From IMG/VR virus record IMGVR_UViG_2529293240_000014: a stretch of DNA of 14,579 nt; one strand, 5' to 3'. Shown here piece after piece: positions 523 to 13,099 of this stretch. Origin of the DNA: a virus. Lineage: Duplodnaviria; Heunggongvirae; Uroviricota; Caudoviricetes. A program made the translations under genes and the position numbers. The notes under the pieces are model-generated. The model worked only from the letters and a program-made list of their open reading frames with translations. It did not search any database and had not been told where the DNA came from. The first letter of the stretch is position 1, and every line of letters starts with the position of its first letter.

Positions 523-600
523 AGTGATTAACACAGATGCTATAGCAACAGCCCCGCCACCAATAGCAACTGCAACAGCCTTGCGTAATGATGGCGACAT
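523..600 (-). pseudogene. SAR endolysin (phage 21 R-like lysozyme), N-terminal ~26 codons only, truncated by the IS insertion
   Basis: Minus-strand ATG at 600-598 overlaps the holin stop (TAATG). Translation [26 protein letters not shown] is a signal-anchor-release N-terminus; the frame then reads into IS-derived sequence and stops. Confidence 0.6.
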
Positions 601-815
601 TATTCACCTCTCGCAGCCTTACGCTTGTCTTCTCTTATTTTGAAATACAGATTCGTCAGATAAGTCAGAAGCCCCAGAAGCAGACTTCCCAGCACACCAA
701 TCGCAGCCCACTGTGACGGACTGACCTGATCAAGCCACTGTAAAAGCCAGTAGCCGGCACTGCCGGCGGAGGTGCCGTAGGCAATGCCCGTTGACATTTT
801 GTCCATAGATTTCAT
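600..815 (-). CDS. Class II holin / pinholin (phage 21 S-like, EssD-like), 71 aa
   Basis: Start ATG at 815 preceded by GGAGGTGAGG. Translation [71 protein letters not shown] with dual-start motif (M1/M4) and two TM segments. The ORF-track extension to 902 has no RBS and spans a terminator hairpin. Confidence 0.85.
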
Positions 816-875
816 AACCTCACCTCCGCAAATAACGGATGGCGTAGCTTTACACTGAGAGACGAAAAGGATTTG

Positions 876-898
876 AAAAAAAGCCCGCAAAAGCGGGC
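876..898 (-). terminator. Intrinsic terminator just upstream of the holin gene
   Basis: Plus-strand aaaaaaa-GCCCGC-aaaa-GCGGGC; on the minus strand this is a GC-rich 6-bp hairpin followed by a 7-U tract. Confidence 0.5.
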
Positions 899-1106
899 GC
901 AACGGAATCTACAGTAAGGAAAGCACTCTATCCAACAAAACACCCACAGTTAATCGGAATAAAAGCAGAGTGCTTATGAATGATCGCCTGCCCGAAGGTT
1001 GGTATTTCTGCACAGCAATTTTGCAAAAAAGACGAGCATTCAAAACGCAAACGTCTTTCAGTCACTCCGTGCTTTCCCATCATCGCAGACTGAAAGACTT
1101 TAACTT

Positions 1107-1178
<72 letters not shown>

Positions 1179-1181
1179 ATA

Positions 1182-1257
<76 letters not shown>

Positions 1258-1259
1258 GC

Positions 1260-1336
1260 TGGCCCACCACCGAGAACTCGAACCTCGCACCGTCAACTTA
1301 GAAGGTTGATGCTCTATCCGGATGAGCTAGCGGTGG
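1260..1336 (-). tRNA. tRNA-Arg (anticodon UCU, reads AGA), phage argN/argO-type
   Basis: Reverse complement folds as a cloverleaf: acceptor CCACCGC/GTGGTGG (one G-U), D-arm GCTC/GAGC, anticodon stem TCAAC/GTTGA with loop CTTCTAA, T-loop TTCGAGT, encoded CCA. Confidence 0.75.
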
Positions 1337-1337
1337 T

Positions 1338-1414
1338 TGGTGGCCCTTGCTGGACTTGAACCAGCGACCTGGCGATTATGAGTCGCTCGCTCTGACCAAC
1401 TGAGCTAAAGGGCC
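1338..1414 (-). tRNA. tRNA with CAU anticodon, ileX/ileZ-like (tRNA-Ile2, lysidine type, reads AUA); Met cannot be excluded
   Basis: Reverse complement GGCCCTTTAGCTCAGTTGGTCAGAGCGAGCGACTCATAATCGCCAGGTCGCTGGTTCAAGTCCAGCAAGGGCCACCA. Perfect acceptor stem, loop CTCATAA, T-arm GCTGG-TTCAAGT-CCAGC; close to E. coli ileX as recalled. Confidence 0.8.
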
Positions 1415-1502
1415 GGAGGCAGAATAATAACCATATGTCATCACATCTGCAAACTCATCTGACCACCAGCACGTTTAACGTCCTGTGCCGTTTTTCAGGT
1501 AT

Positions 1503-1527
1503 AAAAAAACCCGCATAAAGCGGGCTC
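1503..1527 (-). terminator. Intrinsic terminator downstream of Q (tR'-like)
   Basis: Plus-strand aaaaaaa-CCCGC-ataaa-GCGGG; on the minus strand a hairpin followed by a 7-U tract, about 80 nt downstream of the Q stop. Confidence 0.55.
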
Positions 1528-1603
1528 TTTCAAATGTCCATGTCTGCTATTCGCCTCGCGGTACAGCTTTGCGAAGCGTACAAGAATTGAAGCAGTTTTT
1601 ACG

Positions 1604-2158
1604 TCAAAAAGCAATAACTTTTTTCTCTATACCAAAAGCCATAACCATTGGTTTGTACAAAATAAATTCTGCCACCTTTAGCCAATGCTCAATGCGTCTT
1701 TCACAGGTTCTTAAACTCCATTTCGGGTGTGCATCATTCAGCAGTTCAGCCATTTTGCGTTTGGTCATCCCCCGCCCCTCATACCGTTGCCGAAGGACGC
1801 TAATCAATCCTGGATGCTCTGCCAGCACCTCACTTATGACCCGATCAATACATAACGCCTCTGCATCAGTACAATGCGCCAGCCAGCTCTTTTGCTTACC
1901 GTTAATCATATCCCGCAAAAAAGCCTCAAGTTCAGACTTGTTCAGACCTGCTTTTTTCATCCTCCGGAGCGCCTCGTTAATTGCCGTTTTTGTCAGCTTT
2001 TTAGAGGTCAACATCAGGTTAAACATATTCCCCGTCTTACCGCCACCAATATACGACCAGCGCCCCCACATACGTAGTTTTCCCTGAATCCAGACACTTT
2101 CCAGCGTGGTGAGACGAAGGTGTTCTCCGCTTTTTCCTGTATTCGTTGGGTAAATCAT
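1604..2158 (-). CDS. Late-gene antitermination protein Q (lambdoid Q-like), 184 aa
   Basis: ATG at 2158 preceded by AAGGAGGG and overlapping the upstream stop (ATGA). Lies directly upstream of the terminator, tRNA cluster and holin; family assignment is from recalled similarity and synteny. Confidence 0.7.
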   Translation of the reverse strand: MIYPTNTGKSGEHLRLTTLESVWIQGKLRMWGRWSYIGGGKTGNMFNLMLTSKKLTKTAINEALRRMKKAGLNKSELEAFLRDMINGKQKSWLAHCTDAEALCIDRVISEVLAEHPGLISVLRQRYEGRGMTKRKMAELLNDAHPKWSLRTCERRIEHWLKVAEFILYKPMVMAFGIEKKVIAF

Positions 2159-2445
2159 AAATATCCCTCCTTTCTCCAGATTTCTTGTGTGCGAAAAACA
2201 CCTTCTGCATGCATCAGGCGTAATTCTTCTTTGGTGTAATCGCTGGTTTTTACCCGCCCGTCGATTAAATCGTGGCACGAGCTACAGGCAATCGCTGCCT
2301 GCATATCGTGTGGCTTTATCGCTGTTCCGCACGTTCCCGCCAGTCGGTAATGCGCCAGCACAGACGTTTCCGGATCGTGATTGCAGTAGCCAGGAATTCT
2401 GACGGTGCACATCTGCCCCCGCGCCGCTTTAAGTAAATCCACCAT
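2155..2445 (-). CDS. YbcO-like protein (DUF1364; putative phage nuclease), 96 aa
   Basis: Translation MVDLLKAARGQMCTVRIPGYCNHDPETSVLAHYRLAGTCGTAIKPHD...ACSSCHD resembles DLP12 YbcO with conserved Cys/His. Start overlaps the upstream stop (TAATG). Confidence 0.8.
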   Translation of the reverse strand: MVDLLKAARGQMCTVRIPGYCNHDPETSVLAHYRLAGTCGTAIKPHDMQAAIACSSCHDLIDGRVKTSDYTKEELRLMHAEGVFRTQEIWRKEGYL

Positions 2446-2613
2446 TACGCAAACTCCAGCAGCTGCGCGGCCACATTTTCGACTTGTTCCGGAGAGGAAA
2501 ATTTACGGAACAGAATCCAGTTCCACAGCACATTCAGTACAGATTTATAAACCTGCTGAAACTCGGTTTCGTCCATATTCGCAAACGCGATAGATTTCGC
2601 CCGACACCCACGG
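2445..2613 (-). pseudogene. YbcN-like (DUF1367) gene, 3' fragment separated from its 5' part by IS911
   Basis: In-frame minus-strand translation ...RAKSIAFANMDETEFQQVYKSVLNVLWNWILFRKFSSPEQVENVAAQLLEFA ends at TAA overlapping the ybcO-like ATG. It joins the 5' fragment (3863..4296) in frame once IS911 and one CGG copy are removed (600 nt total). Confidence 0.7.
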
Positions 2614-2621
2614 TGAAGTGG

Positions 2622-3790
<1,169 letters not shown>

Positions 3791-3862
3791 TGGAGCACCT
3801 GTGTTGTTCTGAGGTGAGCATATCACCTCTGTTCAGGTGGCCAAATTCAGTGTGCCACTTCA

Positions 3863-4296
3863 CGGCTACCGTCCGGATAAAAATGCTCGGTGTAAAATCC
3901 GGCCTGAATGGCTACCCACTCGCGGAAAGCCTCAAACGACTTTAGCAAAGCCGTATCACGGGTTCTGCGTGTCGCAACTGTATTCAGATATTGCTCTGCG
4001 GCTTCGCTCAGAGCTGGCGTATGTTCCCGGCCTACTGATTCACACAGGTAATCAACGAAACCGGACACCAGTTTTCGTTCGCGAGGCGTGATCGCCCCAC
4101 CGACCGGAGTCCAGTAATCGAAACCCAGTTGCAGGAGTTTGAAAAAACGCTTGTGGAATGCGTAGTTACGCACACGCTTAAAGTCTGCGTGTATCCACTC
4201 ACCTATTTTGATTTGATGCAGAAAATCGCAACTCTCCGGCGTCGCCGGGAGAAGTAATCCGGAAGAGGTTTGTTTGACCAGTTGTATATGTGCCAT
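3863..4296 (-). pseudogene. YbcN-like (DUF1367) gene, 5' fragment interrupted by IS911
   Basis: ATG at 4296 preceded by GGAGAAAG. Translation MAHIQLVKQTSSGLLLPATPESCDFLHQIKIGEWIHADFKRVRNYAFHKRFFKLLQLGFDYWTP... resembles DLP12 YbcN; the frame runs into the IS911 end at 3862. Confidence 0.75.
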
Positions 4297-4334
4297 CGGC
4301 TTTCTCCGGTGGCACGGTGTTACACAGCAGGAGT

Positions 4335-4622
4335 TCAATCCTGCTCAAGATTGTAGATGAGTTTATTCTTCAGCAAAAGCAGAAAACCAGCCTTAAAACC
4401 AATCTCTTTCAAAACCCGTAATGATGTGACAAATTCGTCCTCACGCAAAATAAAACCGTCCGTCAGAAGTCCATTACAAAAATAAAATAACACAGCACCG
4501 CTCTTCCTTTGTTGAGATTGCAAACATCTAATGCGGCAATGGCTGACAATCGCTCCATTCTCAACGCGCACAGCATAGAGGCTATTTTCACTAAAAATTT
4601 CACGCAATTCTTCGATTTTCAT
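4335..4622 (-). CDS. Hypothetical protein, 95 aa, unknown function
   Basis: ORF with start at 4622 preceded by GGAAGGA. No family recognised by eye. Sits between the hok locus and the ybcN-like gene. Confidence 0.5.
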   Translation of the reverse strand: MKIEELREIFSENSLYAVRVENGAIVSHCRIRCLQSQQRKSGAVLFYFCNGLLTDGFILREDEFVTSLRVLKEIGFKAGFLLLLKNKLIYNLEQD

Positions 4623-4751
4623 CTTCAGAATCCTTCCAGATAAATAGCTCTCCCCTGTTCGGGGTCCATCCCTCTTCTCCCTGCGCGCTACTTAAGTGAG
4701 TCGATTCTATCTGCGAAGGTGCGCGAATCAAATTCACCGGAAATAAACAAC

Positions 4752-4796
4752 AAAAAACCCGCCGAAACGCTGAGAGATCACAGCGATGGGCGGGTT
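4752..4796 (-). terminator. Terminator / 3' fold-back structure of the hok transcript
   Basis: Plus-strand aaaaaa-CCCGCC-(25 nt)-GGCGGG; on the minus strand a long hairpin followed by a U-tract, about 80 nt past the hok stop. Confidence 0.45.
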
Positions 4797-4871
4797 AAGT
4801 GCGGGTGCGTTGAGGATGCCTGACACATCAGAGGTGGGCGGGGATGGGATCAGCTCCCCACCCGGTCACTC

Positions 4872-5027
4872 TTACTTCCTGGATTCGTAGTCTACGAAGA
4901 CAGCGACCTCCGTCTGGCCGGTTCGGATTCGTACCTCACAGAGGTCTTTCCTCGTTACCAGCGCCGTCACTATGACGGTTAAACAGATGACGATCAGGGC
5001 GATTAACATCGCCTTTTGCTGCTTCAT
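4872..5027 (-). CDS. hok: Hok/Gef-family type I toxin (HokD/RelF-like), 51 aa
   Basis: Translation MKQQKAMLIALIVICLTVIVTALVTRKDLCEVRIRTGQTEVAVFVDYESRK: single TM helix plus conserved C-terminal Hok motif. ATG at 5027 preceded by AAGGAG. In-frame upstream ATGs at 5054 and 5084 give a mok-like overlapping frame. Confidence 0.85.
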   Translation of the reverse strand: MKQQKAMLIALIVICLTVIVTALVTRKDLCEVRIRTGQTEVAVFVDYESRK

Positions 5028-5034
5028 AGCCTGC

Positions 5035-5105
5035 TTCTCCTTGCCTTTCGGCATGTAAGAGGCTAACCTACATGTGCAAAGCATGAAATTGGCCTCAGAT
5101 TAATG
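5035..5105 (+). ncRNA. Putative Sok-like antisense RNA opposite the hok/mok translation-initiation region (inferred, boundaries approximate)
   Basis: Inferred from hok/sok architecture: the antisense regulator lies opposite the mok start (5054-5084). A possible plus-strand promoter is TTGCCT (5041-5046), 17 nt, TAACCT. Not directly demonstrable. Confidence 0.25.
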
Positions 5106-5254
5106 TTAAGCGTCTTGCCGGACGCGTAATGTTAACTGGGGCTTTTCTCTATCTGCCTTTTGGTGTTCATGCCTGAAGCAGATAGCCTCAAGCACCCGCA
5201 GTCATTCTACTTACCTCGCCAATATGAAATCAATCAGAAAGGTGCCCCATAAAA

Positions 5255-5941
5255 TCACTCCTTCTCTTCTTTACCGTAGTGGAGTTGACCAATTTTGATA
5301 AGAGGGCGTCCCTGAGATTTGCGGTGTAGATTGGTATCGCGCAGAGAATACACACAGCCACAATATTCCTGCTGATAGAATTTTTCGCGCTTGCTGATTT
5401 CAATCATACGGGACGAGCCGCCCTGCTTGCGCCAGTTATAATCCCAGTACACCATGCCCGGATAATGCGCGACGGCTCGCCGCCCACAGTCGTTAACCTG
5501 CTGCATATTTTTCCAGCGAGAAATGCCCAGTGAACTGCTGATCACACTGAAACCATTTTCAGCGGCGTACAGCGCTGTCCGCTCAAAACGCATGTCAAAA
5601 CACATGGTGCAACGGATCCCTCGTTCGGGCTCCCATTCCATTCCTTTGGCTCGTTCAAACCAGTTGTCTGTGTCGTAATCAGCATCAATAAACGGCACGC
5701 CGTGTTGTTCAGCAAAGCGAATATTCTCATCCTTACGAATTAAATACTCTTTCTGAGGATGAATGTTCGGGTTGTAGAAAAAGATGGTGTAGTCGATTCC
5801 CGAGGCCTGAAGCGCCTCCATCACCTCACCGGAACATGGAGCACAGCAAGAGTGCAGTAGTAGTTTGTTTGCCCCGTTTGGGAGCTCCAATTTGGGCCGT
5901 TTGAAATCAGCAACTGTCATAAATATGTTTATTGGGGTCAT
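5255..5941 (-). CDS. queH: QueH-like epoxyqueuosine reductase (DUF208 family), 228 aa
   Basis: Translation has the DUF208 hallmarks: [11 protein letters not shown] near the N-terminus, [23 protein letters not shown], and C-terminal QEYCGCVYS. No obvious SD before either candidate start (5941 or 5920). Confidence 0.8.
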
Positions 5942-10474: not shown

Positions 10475-11380
10475 CTATATTTCCAGACATCTGTTATCAC
10501 TTAACCCATTACAAGCCCGCTGCCGCAGATATTCCCGTGGCGAGCGATAACCCAGCGCACTATGCGGATGCCATTCGTTATAATACTCGAACGCCTCTGC
10601 AAGGTTCTTTGCTGCCGTTAACCCGTCTGGTTTGGGCATGATACTGATGTAGTCACGCTTTATCGTTTTCACGAAGCTCTCTGCTATTCCGTTACTCTCC
10701 GGACTCCGCACCGCCGTGTTCTTCGGTTCAAGTCCCAACATCCGGGCGAACTGGCGTGTTTCATTAGCCCGGTAGCATGAACCATTATCCGTCAGCCACT
10801 CCACTGGAGACGACGGAAGATCGTTGCCGAAGCGGCGTTCCACCGCTCCCAGCATGACGTCCTGTACTGTTTCACTGTTGAAGCCGCCGGTAGTCACCGC
10901 CCAGTGCAGTGCCTCACGATCACAGCAGTCCAGCGCGAACGTGACACGCAGTCTCTCTCCGTTATCACAGCAGAACTCGAACCCGTCAGAGCACCATCGC
11001 TGATTGCTTTCTTTCACGGCCACTCTGCCTGTATGTGCCCGTTTCGATGGCGGTACAGCAGGTTTTCGCTCAAGCAACAGCGCATTCTGGCGCATGATCC
11101 GGTAAACACGTTTGGCATTGATCGCAGGCATACCATCAAGTTCTGCCTGTCTGCGAAGCAGCGCCCATACCCGACGATAACCATACGTGGGCAGCTCTCC
11201 GATAACATGGTGTATACGGAGAAGCACATCCGTATCATCAGTGTGACGACTGCGGCGGCCATCCATCCAGTCATCGGTTCGTCTGAGAATGACGTGCAAC
11301 TGCGCACGCGACACCCGGAGACAACGGCTGACTAAGCTTACTCCCCATCCCCGGGCAATAAGGGCGCGTGCGCTATCCAC
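10475..11380 (-). CDS. insD: IS2 transposase InsD (OrfB), 301 aa
   Basis: Translation [59 protein letters not shown]... is IS2 InsD; overlaps insC as expected for frameshift-fused OrfAB. Confidence 0.92.
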
Positions 11381-11836: not shown

Positions 11837-12354
11837 ATTCATTTCCTTACTGGTTGTGTGAGAACTTCAGTAAAGATACCACCAAAGCCCGGAGGTGGTG
11901 AAATAAAACCGGGCACAACACGAAGGCGCATTTCCGGTATCCATAAAGAGTCGGTCTTGTCTGTGAAATTTAAATGGTGGGAGTGCGCTTCCGGTTGTAA
12001 ATAACGACATTGCTGTGTGAAGTACCAGTTGGCGGCATCGGTTTAATTGCTGGCTGATGTCCGCCCTTTTTAAAGTGAATTTTGTGATGCGGTGAATGCG
12101 GCTATGCGCACGCGGCACAGTTAAAAGTCATGTTAGTCCTTATTGGTTTGGGTGGGAAAGCCAACTGTAATTGTTAACTGGTTAACGTCACCTGGAGGCA
12201 CCAGGCACCGCATCAACAAAGTTCACTTCGGTGATGAAAGGAAAGAGAAAATGTTGAATGTAGCTATTGAAAACCAGAACGGGTGGAATTATAGTGCACC
12301 TGCACCTCATAAAACGGGTGCCGGGATTGCTACCCCGACGATGACTACTGCGCA

Positions 12355-12378
12355 TAACCGCGCTCAGGCGGTTTTTTT
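12355..12378 (+). terminator. Terminator-like hairpin plus T-tract inside the Rha upstream extension (possible attenuator)
   Basis: AACCGC-gctcag-GCGGTT followed by TTTTT. Lies between the strong upstream RBS/ATG (12251) and the Rha-domain start (12545). Confidence 0.3.
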
Positions 12379-12544
12379 ATGCGTCAAGCACAGCCACATT
12401 CAGATTATGGTGGGGCGTGCAGGGCAGCCGCAAGGCTGGCCGGTTTCGGTAGTCACCGGTTGTAGCAACCCTGTGCGTCTCACCACCCATGAGATTGCTA
12501 CCTCTGGTGGTGAGTTATTTAAACTGACTATCGAGGCTGCCATC

Positions 12545-13099
12545 ATGGCTACTATCCTTACCCTTTCTCACCCTGACGTAACCATCGAAAATGGTCGCGC
12601 TGTCACTACGTCTGTTGCGGTTGCGGAGTTCTTCCGGAAAATGCACAAAAACGTTATTCAGAAGATCGAAACTCTCGAATGCTCGCCGGAGTTTAACCGG
12701 CTTAATTTTAAGCCCGTCACCTATACCGACGCCAAAGGCGAAAAACGCCCAATGTACCAAATCACCAAAAACGGCTTCGTTTTCCTGGTGATGGGCTTCA
12801 CTGGCAAAAAAGCCGCCGCATTCAAGGAAGCCTACATTGCTGAGTTCGACCGCATGGAGGCCGAACTGCGCCAGAATAACACCCCACCTGCTGACAAGAT
12901 GATTCCGGGTGATGGTCGCACTCTGGTTGTTCACTTCGACAAATTCGGCAATGTCGAATTCACCGAAACCGTTCCTGATGGCGCACTGGTCTGTACCCTG
13001 GAGACTTTCCGGTTTTATCTGGAAAAACAGGGATGGACTCTTGTTAACCGGGGCGCAATTAAAAATATGACTGTGGAACAATTACTTTCTTTAAAATAA
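12545..13099 (+). CDS. Rha-family phage regulatory protein; start ambiguous (12545, or 12251 with a 98-aa N-terminal extension)
   Basis: Rha-domain motifs AVTTSVAVAEFFRKMHKNVIQKIETL...KRPMYQITKNGFVFLVMGFTGKKAAAFKEAYIAEFDRME. ATG at 12545 preceded by GAGG; the in-frame ATG at 12251 has a stronger AAGGAAAGAG site. Confidence 0.7.
   Translation: MATILTLSHPDVTIENGRAVTTSVAVAEFFRKMHKNVIQKIETLECSPEFNRLNFKPVTYTDAKGEKRPMYQITKNGFVFLVMGFTGKKAAAFKEAYIAEFDRMEAELRQNNTPPADKMIPGDGRTLVVHFDKFGNVEFTETVPDGALVCTLETFRFYLEKQGWTLVNRGAIKNMTVEQLLSLK

Follow-up and report, generated by a model that had tools for sequence, protein, structure and literature searches.

Does the short toxin gene that follows queH in a lambdoid prophage belong to a complete hok/mok/sok module, or is it what is left of one? 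This question is raised by positions 5233-4752 on the minus strand of the window, by which we mean the whole stretch of 14,579 nucleotides that was analysed (IMG/VR virus record IMGVR_UViG_2529293240_000014, Caudoviricetes). A preliminary description made from the sequence alone had proposed a hok/sok-type locus embedded in the prophage, and this is borne out by Pfam, PHROG, Rfam, promoter and fold evidence. The segment is very probably a complete and apparently intact hok/mok/sok type I toxin-antitoxin locus of the hokW/hokD type (Table 1). Every sequence-level hallmark of hok/sok that we checked is present, and none looks decayed; the promoters on both strands, the overlapping reading frames and the complementary boxes can be seen directly in the sequence. 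Our high confidence covers a locus that is structurally intact, and its activity in the host is a prediction. The locus is an already known kind of element, in that its protein is named in RefSeq and its sister locus, hokW-sokW, has been studied by experiment. One aspect alone is mildly new, namely that variation is concentrated in the recognition tail of Sok.

Table 1. Features of the locus and its two neighbours, in window coordinates
Feature	Position	Strand	Basis
queH	5941..5255	-	Pfam QueH, E=1.9e-65
hok promoter (-35 TTGATT 5233-5228, 18-nt spacer, -10 TAGAAT 5209-5204)	5233..5204	-	consensus scan, 9/12
full-length hok (mok-hok) mRNA, ~446 nt, GGGUGCUUGAGG to terminator U-run	5197..4752	-	predicted ends
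hok mRNA 5′ leader, Rfam RF01794 ('sok')	5197..5022	-	covariance match
tac element (mRNA 5′ end, partner of fbi)	5197..5186	-	minimum-free-energy fold
ucb / anti-SD AGCCCCA	5144-5138	-	folds: with mok SD region (closed), with tac (open)
mok Shine-Dalgarno (SD) GAGG	5096-5093	-	8 nt ahead of mok ATG, sequence reading
mok reading frame, 70 aa, in frame with hok	5084..4872	-	ORF list
hok toxin gene, 51 aa, MKQQKAMLIALIVICLTVIVTALVTRKDLCEVRIRTGQTEVAVFVDYESRK	5027..4872	-	Pfam HOK_GEF
CUACGAA around Tyr47 (TAC 4889-4887)	4890-4884	-	TadA A-to-I editing motif
GC-rich hairpin just past hok stop codon	4864-4836	-	fold
fbi element CCUCAACGCACCC (3′ UTR, partner of tac)	4815..4803	-	minimum-free-energy fold
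hok terminator, branched hairpin + T6	4795..4752	-	fold
Sok promoter (-35 TTGCCT 5041-5046, 17-nt spacer, -10 TAACCT 5064-5069)	5041..5069	+	sokW homology
predicted Sok antisense RNA, 71 nt	~5076-5146	+	coordinates transferred from annotated sokW of 933W
95-aa ORF	4622..4335	-	PHROG 340, function unknown

The toxin frame and its messenger RNA

The assignment of the 51-aa product to the Hok/Gef family of toxins holds. Pfam PF01848 (HOK_GEF) matches it over profile positions 1-42 of 42 with E=4.3e-23 (81 bits, with a cut-off of 22), and the 70-aa mok frame falls into PHROG 251, 'MokW-like host killing', with E=3e-32. RefSeq gives the name HokD (WP_014532198.1) to the toxin of a locus that is 99.6% identical to the present one, and this protein is identical to the present Hok. 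Compared with HokW, 50 of the 51 residues are the same, and the sole amino-acid change is E50R in the variable C-terminal tail. The ribosome binding site that had been judged good for hok can be read in the sequence as GGAG at 5040-5037, 9 nt ahead of the ATG. Likewise, the in-frame upstream starts at 5084 and 5054 do provide a mok-like leader frame. The frame from 5084, with the ATG at 5054 inside it, has the 70-aa length and the position of the annotated mokW of phage 933W and shares 67 of 70 residues with it (3 differ). In our phage comparison set (72 phage loci, 51 of them unique), the mok GAGG is retained in 70 loci and the mok ATG in 69, the former next to variable bases and the latter despite variable flanks.

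The coding region may also be a site of RNA editing. The CUACGAA around Tyr47 matches the anticodon loop of tRNA-Arg2, and its TACGAA is invariant in 32/32 aligned loci, third codon positions included. A4888 is a candidate for Tyr-to-Cys recoding through A-to-I editing by TadA; the TadA motif and its editing have been described in hokB/C/D/E (bioRxiv 10.1101/2025.08.07.668861).

The 5′ end of the hok mRNA was predicted from the start of the Rfam model together with the promoter spacing, and the 3′ end from the terminator hairpin and its T6. The hok promoter, whose -10 TAGAAT is conserved in 933W, HannyBb and FDAARGOS_943, ends 7 nt upstream of the start of the Rfam leader match at 5197. A covariance-model search, which the preliminary description had suggested for hok mRNA and Sok RNA, returned an untruncated match to RF01794 over model positions 1-157 of 157, at 117 bits (gathering score 59) and E=1.3e-26, well past what chance would give; however, the matched strand is that of the hok leader, not of the Sok antisense RNA. 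The match thus lies on the hok coding strand, begins at GGGUGCUUGAGG, and closes with a consensus AUG that falls on the hok start codon (5027-5025).

At the other end of the mRNA, the 3′ hairpin and U-tract claimed from the sequence reappear in the fold as a branched terminator, with an outer stem of 4795-4788 with 4764-4757, an inner stem of 4784-4780 with 4771-4767, and T6 at 4757-4752. Its loop carries a 23-nt insertion as compared to the simple terminator of HannyBb and of the genomic locus L007. A simple terminator scan called no terminator at the locus, because this loop is longer than the 8 nt that the scan allows. The position just past the hok stop codon also holds a hairpin, of other sequence, in 933W, HannyBb and other loci. 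By analogy to data on R1 (PMC9841398), the post-stop hairpin is a candidate protector of the 3′ end of the processed mRNA.

Predicted fold-back pairing and the putative antisense RNA

A long 3′ element had been considered consistent with the fold-back of hok mRNAs, and this view gains from the minimum-free-energy fold of 5197-4752, in which tac (mRNA nt 1-12) pairs with fbi over 12 bp with one bulge, as well as from compensatory changes across genera. The tac sequence GGGTGCTTGAGGCT was found in 68 of the 72 phage loci. The tac-fbi duplex has a predicted energy of -21.5 kcal/mol vs -15.7 ± 2.3 kcal/mol for a shuffled 3′ UTR, with 35 of 2000 shuffles equal or better, such that the end pairing by itself appears only modestly better than shuffles. 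For comparison, 47 genomic loci were fetched (Escherichia, Shigella, Kluyvera, Photorhabdus, Pantoea, Citrobacter, Erwinia), and 32 full regions were aligned. At alignment columns 48/470, which belong to tac and fbi, the pair is UA in 16 loci, CG in 12 and UG in 2, and it is unpaired in none, the change from U-A to C-G occurring in Photorhabdus and Pantoea. Further matched changes are GGGCGCUUGAGA with UCUCAAGCGCCC in Photorhabdus and GAAG with CUUC in Citrobacter, and the tac-fbi covariation thus spans Escherichia, Photorhabdus, Pantoea and Citrobacter loci. When the window fold was mapped on the 32 loci (at least six genera), 80.9% of cells were paired vs 37-43% with the partners slid by 1-3 columns, a measure that is inflated because the mapped fold came from the window sequence, itself one member of the alignment. 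In the same alignment, 46 pairs were altered on both sides vs 34 ± 3 in shuffles.

In the predicted closed fold, the mok GAGG is tied up by ucb, its three G (5096, 5094 and 5093) being paired to the three C at 5141-5139, and the ucb/mok-SD helix contains 7 pairs with changes on both sides. When the open fold was forced, mRNA nt 1-3 and 5-8 paired with 5144-5138, and the mok GAGG was left unpaired. According to the predicted thermodynamics, the full-length RNA pays 12.4 kcal/mol to adopt this open tac/ucb fold, but an RNA that lacks fbi pays only 1.9 kcal/mol. The unconstrained minimum-free-energy fold of the 3′-truncated RNA did not contain the textbook open tac/ucb fold, which was obtained by forcing; it contained a 5′ hairpin that matches the described metastable structure, which in R1 hok mRNA exists during transcription (PMC9841398). 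A switch of the mRNA from closed to open is thus plausible, rather than demonstrated. It would agree with the R1 mechanism, in which a closed full-length RNA is slowly shortened by 3′ exonucleolytic processing into a truncated mRNA that can be translated, a tac/ucb stem forms, the mok SD becomes free, Sok binds, and RNase III decay follows (PMC9841398).

For the antisense RNA, both hexamers of the putative Sok promoter agree fully with those of sokW, with a single base changed in the spacer. The -10 is TAACCT in 57/72 phage loci and TAATCT in 7. A check for a plus-strand promoter, which had been put forward earlier, gave a divided result: a generic sigma-70 scan called no plus-strand promoter at the locus, where the -10 TAACCT matches the consensus at 3/6 positions, while the arrangement TTGCCT-17-TAACCT has the hexamers of the tested sokW promoter. 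We rejected the silence of the scan as a sign that Sok is absent, since the sokW promoter, which is validated, shares this weak -10 and would go uncalled as well. Furthermore, the primers for the sokW promoter mutant alter exactly the -10 TAACCT, and this mutation released HokW toxicity (PMC8621323).

The predicted Sok has a free 15-nt 5′ tail (5076-5090), a hairpin (5091-5143) and a UUUU end, folds with -28.6 kcal/mol, and is complementary to the mok SD and start codon. The preliminary description had expected Sok on the plus strand at around 5035-5105. The strand was right, but the interval is shifted by about 40 nt and holds only the promoter at 5041-5069 and the first 30 nt of the RNA. The Sok hairpin, which in the hok mRNA is the ucb/SD helix, shows 333 Watson-Crick cells vs 1 G-U across 29 loci, while the other helices have 7-19% G-U among their paired cells. 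Such near-exclusive Watson-Crick pairing is what one would expect where the two strands both have to fold.

Taken from the work on R1 and hokW, the following steps can be proposed for the present locus. A weak constitutive promoter would give rise to a stable mRNA of about 446 nt, in which tac at 5197-5186 is clamped to fbi at 4815-4803. In this closed form, the mok GAGG would be paired to the upstream CCC of ucb, such that neither ribosomes nor Sok could engage. Slow trimming from the 3′ end would take off fbi, whereupon the 5′ end would switch to ucb and the mok start region would be freed. Translation of mok, in frame with hok, would open the hok start site, and the 51-aa Hok peptide would insert into the inner membrane and kill or lyse the cell. 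The unstable 71-nt Sok from the opposite strand would recognise the mok start region with its free 5′ tail, and the Sok-hok duplex would block mok translation and then be degraded by RNase III. Toxin would thus be made only when the supply of Sok ends, be it by loss of the DNA, by a transcription block, or by prophage induction.

Setting, relatives and alternative readings

The locus lies in the early-right operon of a lambdoid element on the minus strand. This operon starts with YdaT and a replication pair that includes a DnaC/IstB-like ATPase, followed by DUF977, a zinc-ribbon protein, QueH and hok/sok, and it continues after hok/sok with PHROG 340, a DUF1367/NinB-like gene, YbcO, a DUF1133 Q-like antiterminator and four tRNA genes. 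The neighbours named in the preliminary description were correct, in that QueH is recognised by Pfam, and the 95-aa ORF at 4622..4335 has no Pfam match and gives only PHROG 340 in PHROGs. The claim of an accessory position was also right, since the nin-like region that houses the locus has the replication genes on one side and the Q-like antiterminator on the other. The DUF1367/NinB-like gene is cut short by an IS3-family element (2622-3826), and another transposase is encoded at 10475-11380; the host element is an IS-damaged lambdoid prophage that carries hok/sok in its nin-like accessory region. The hok gene is co-oriented with the early-right operon, the queH stop is separated by 21 bp from the hok -35, and a simple terminator scan detected no terminator between the two.

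Sequences related to the locus are widespread, with megablast matches in 4713 of 5426 complete E. coli genomes at a median of 2 places and up to 9. Two records are 99.6% identical to the locus; their toxin, HokD, is encoded by a lambdoid prophage, with QueH on one side and a hypothetical gene on the other. Around the locus, the window shares 99.65% identity over 2.6 kb with E. coli ECMA0423 and Shigella flexneri SFBU1023. The adjacency of queH and hok is seen in all of the best 25 E. coli records, but only in 3 of 80 viral and 3 of 47 genome loci. A fixed pairing of the two genes was therefore rejected; it is one of several contexts.

The best annotated phage relative is hokW-mokW-sokW of the Stx2 phages 933W and Sp5 (VT2-Sakai), which is 91.6% identical in DNA over the 425 nt that reach from the leader to fbi. 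The in-frame mok of 70 codons, the Sok promoter hexamers, the Sok hairpin with its U-tail, and the tac and fbi sequences are identical in the two loci, which differ in the sequence upstream of the hok -10, in the post-stop hairpin and in the terminator. Furthermore, the 933W copy is situated near the right end of the prophage by late or accessory genes, whereas the present copy follows queH in a nin-like region. Experimentally, hokW-sokW is a working type I toxin-antitoxin system, since HokW is toxic and sokW neutralises this toxicity when expressed from its native promoter, but not when the -10 is mutated; RNase III and Hfq contribute to this action (PMC8621323). Upon addition of mitomycin C, sokW RNA vanishes and HokW arrives at the inner membrane; in the absence of the locus, phage release drops to half (PMC8621323).

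Prophage-borne copies are also known for hokD (relF), including the K-12 Qin prophage copy, and hokD-type proteins (ending in ...AVFTAYEPEE) are 90% identical to the present Hok. In the hokD copies of E. coli ECDA1023 (L009) and of Kluyvera (L037), unrelated sequence stands in place of the leader ahead of the hok SD; this is the relBE-hokD arrangement of K-12. These copies lack tac, ucb, the mok start and the Sok target, whereas the window copy retains the full leader. The chromosomal hokC (gef)/mokC/sokC loci of Escherichia have 78-80% protein identity, the same leader elements and the same fbi logic with G-U variants, but their Sok/ucb-SD hairpin is 18 nt shorter, their sok -10 region is a different one, and they are not carried by a prophage.

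The hok/mok/sok locus of plasmid R1 has the same parts in the same order, i.e., promoter, tac, ucb, mok SD, a 70-codon mok overlapping hok, Sok, post-stop hairpin, fbi and terminator, and its Sok is antisense to the mok start region, as predicted here (PMC9841398). However, the R1 Hok is only about 44% identical to HokW, and hence to the present Hok (PMC8621323). Also, 58 nt separate the mok ATG (116-118) from the hok ATG (174-176) in R1, which puts the two out of frame (PMC9841398), while the two ATGs of the present locus are 57 nt apart and in frame, such that Mok would here be an N-terminally extended Hok. Finally, R1 hok/mok/sok is plasmid-borne with proven post-segregational killing, and the present locus resides in a prophage.

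The question of which RNA is the antitoxin could be answered differently if the name of the Rfam family were taken at its word. The family 'sok antitoxin (CssrC)' is listed at 5197-5022 on the minus strand, and Sok would then be this 176-nt stretch on hok's own strand. We give this reading virtually no chance: the model extends from the 5′ end motif of the hok mRNA to the hok start codon, for which reason the RF01794 match was rejected as a minus-strand Sok; it has 157 positions compared to the 71 nt of the annotated sokW; and sokW is annotated on the strand opposite hokW, to which its promoter mutant maps as well. Moreover, a sense RNA would be unable to base-pair with the mok start region. 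The Rfam 'sok' model RF01794 describes the hok mRNA leader, not Sok, and the true antisense RNA is complementary to its middle; a literal reading of the family name would place the antitoxin on the wrong strand.

With Sok thus placed on the plus strand, it can be asked whether the locus might be a silent relic, which no longer kills or is regulated, like several chromosomal loci of E. coli K-12, and which hitch-hikes in a defective prophage. The prophage is indeed damaged by the IS3-family element and the second transposase, and decayed kin occur in the same genomes, namely L008, whose 5′ end is mutated, and L009, L037 and L042, whose leader is replaced. In addition, a recent survey cites the chromosomal hokA, hokB and hokC as reportedly unable to mediate post-segregational killing, but found 42 of 45 diverse Hok homologues to be toxic when tested (bioRxiv 10.1101/2025.08.07.668861). 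Against a relic speaks that no element of the present locus is disrupted, since the sequence has the hexamers of both promoters, the pairing boxes tac, ucb and fbi, a start codon and SD for mok, an SD and ORF for hok, and a terminator, and that E50R is the only amino-acid change as compared to the tested HokW. The preliminary description had considered that a decayed locus would be suggested by the lack of both a Sok promoter and a conserved fold-back structure; what we find is a sokW-type promoter and a covarying tac-fbi pairing. A silent relic is thus very unlikely in our judgement. Somewhat different is the idea that the module is functional, but that its main role is anti-phage defence rather than retention or help with lysis, by abortive infection, with Sok decaying once an invader has stopped host transcription. 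The R1 hok/sok system excludes phage T4, and an unstable antitoxin paired with a stable toxin mRNA would suit any shut-off of transcription. Prophages, in which hok genes are enriched about four times, are a common home of defence genes, but in that survey hok showed no enrichment in the neighbourhood of defence systems (bioRxiv 10.1101/2025.08.07.668861). The sole direct data for the hokW-sokW subfamily show help with lysis after induction (PMC8621323), and we regard defence as the main role as unlikely.

For the structurally intact hok/mok/sok locus that we favour, the most likely role, by analogy, would be that of hokW-sokW, where Sok is lost and Hok helps lysis after induction, and/or the retention of the prophage segment. 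Yet an intact-looking locus need not be active, and a role in lysis timing may be irrelevant in a prophage that carries IS elements.

Variation in the Sok tail

The value of these findings lies mostly in a correct annotation. Automated annotation of a near-identical locus gives the toxin (HokD) only and omits mok, Sok and the control elements of the mRNA, and marking these would also stop the 5′ leader from being misread as the antitoxin owing to the Rfam family name.

Beyond annotation, the comparison with sokW points to one part of the antisense RNA. The predicted Sok differs from sokW by 7 substitutions, all of which lie in the first 16 nt, while the remaining 55/55 nt are identical. Within the transcript, the entropy per position among the phage loci peaks at 5071-5090 with 0.71-0.99 bit vs 0.17-0.20 bit in the flanking 10-nt bins. 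This segment occurs in 21 variants among the 72 phage loci, with the mok GAGG, the mok ATG and the sok -10 retained; the variant of the window is found in 8 of them and that of 933W in 20. A recognition tail shared with SokW would be the basis for an expected cross-neutralisation, but with 7 of the first 16 nt of Sok being different, the tail is not shared.

A YUNR U-turn motif just past the mok AUG reads UUUG in the window and CUGA in 933W and is not clear in all variants. We make no claim for this motif as a meaningful feature, as by chance it is expected once per 16 nt.

It is conceivable, though in our estimate rather doubtful, that 5071-5090 acts as a fast-evolving 'address label' of Sok and that read-through from queH collides with the Sok promoter. 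The locus is a natural Sok-tail variant of the tested hokW-sokW, and the two could be used as a pair to study antisense specificity and cross-talk among the toxin-antitoxin modules of co-resident prophages. If the tentative proposal were true, diversification of the tail would, in genomes that have up to 9 places matching the locus, keep the hok/sok copies of co-resident prophages from neutralising each other, and each prophage would possess a private addiction or lysis switch. Furthermore, read-through from queH on induction, running against the convergent Sok promoter, would then offer a mechanism for the RecA-dependent disappearance of sokW RNA, which has so far been unexplained.

Predicted transcription into and out of hok

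Only 21 bp separate the stop codon of queH (5255) from the hok -35 hexamer, and no terminator was detected in this junction (5198-5260, minus strand). Because the gap is this short and lacks a detected terminator, transcripts of the early-right operon should read through into hok, where they would run head-on toward the promoter of the Sok antisense RNA. In the 25 best E. coli genome matches, queH adjoins hok in every case; in the wider sets of fetched loci the arrangement is rare (3/80 viral loci and 3/47 genome loci).

At the other end of the gene, the hok terminator (4752-4795, minus strand) carries a 23-nt insertion in its loop, CCATCGCTGTGATCTCTCAGCGT, which forms a small hairpin of its own. 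In contrast, HannyBb and two of the homologous loci (L007 and L009) have a simple terminator, ACCCGC-TTCG-GCGGGT. The second promoter-like site (see table) lies directly past the terminator and upstream of the gene for a 95-aa PHROG 340 protein (4622-4335).

Features in and around the hok locus, by window position
Feature	Position	Strand	Remarks
Four tandem tRNA genes	1107-1414	-	Downstream of Q-like antiterminator
IS3-family element	2622-3826	-	HTH_Tnp_1 orfA 3488-3826, rve orfB 2622-3461
DUF1367/NinB-like gene	3847-4338	-	Adjoins IS3-family element
Second promoter-like site	4704-4731	-	TTGATT-16-TAGAAT; hexamers as in hok promoter
CUACGAA around Hok Tyr47	4884-4890	-	Candidate TadA editing motif, holds TACG
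Second transposase	10475-11380		
isrK	12302-12378	+	Rfam, 61.5 bits
C4 antisense RNA	12403-12490	+	Rfam, 75.7 bits

The prophage surrounding the locus

ARAGORN assigns the tRNA genes to Val(TAC), Thr(TGT), Arg(TCT) and Met(CAT), the last of which probably encodes a lysidine-modified tRNA-Ile. A RefSeq record with a near-identical hok locus has a tRNA cluster of its own that, in a comparison by annotation only, differs in being listed as Ile, Arg, Thr and Gly. The DUF1367/NinB-like gene appears truncated, since its match covers only positions 1-146 of the 198 in the profile, and the prophage as such looks defective. In the related loci of E. coli ECMA0423 and Shigella flexneri SFBU1023, the equivalents of window positions 3927 and 523 are directly joined, such that approximately 3.4 kb (524-3926) are absent there, and with them the IS, YbcO, the Q-like gene and the tRNA cluster. 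This difference is a deletion or rearrangement polymorphism.

The isrK and C4 RNAs stand in tandem, either inside the 5′ part of a Rha/anti-repressor-like ORF (12143-13099, PHROG 995) or immediately before it. The arrangement is similar to immunity control of the C4/ant type in P1/P7 and Gifsy-type prophages.

A conserved motif, the antitoxin strand and a variable segment

The heptamer around Hok Tyr47 is the same as the anticodon loop of tRNA-Arg2. Its TACGAA part is unchanged in all 32 aligned loci, which come from several genera, even at third codon positions. In hok genes, TadA is reported to carry out A-to-I editing at TACG, which changes Tyr to Cys (bioRxiv 10.1101/2025.08.07.668861).

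The match to the Rfam model RF01794, "sok antitoxin (CssrC)", lies on the hok-sense strand (5022-5197, minus strand), and the model has its 3′ limit at the hok AUG. By its sequence, the model is one of the hok mRNA leader and not of an antisense RNA. Automated annotation based on it would thus assign the antitoxin to the wrong strand and overstate its length, at 157 nt versus about 71 nt.

Among 72 phage copies from the viral set of fetched loci (L051-L130), the transcribed locus varies most at 5071-5090, which is the mok start region or the Sok 5′ tail, depending on the strand. This segment occurs in 21 variants, with SD, ATG and sok -10 all retained, and all seven differences between the window's predicted Sok and sokW, its counterpart in phage 933W/Sp5, fall inside it. 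Where several copies are co-resident, variation in this segment may determine the specificity of their antisense RNAs.
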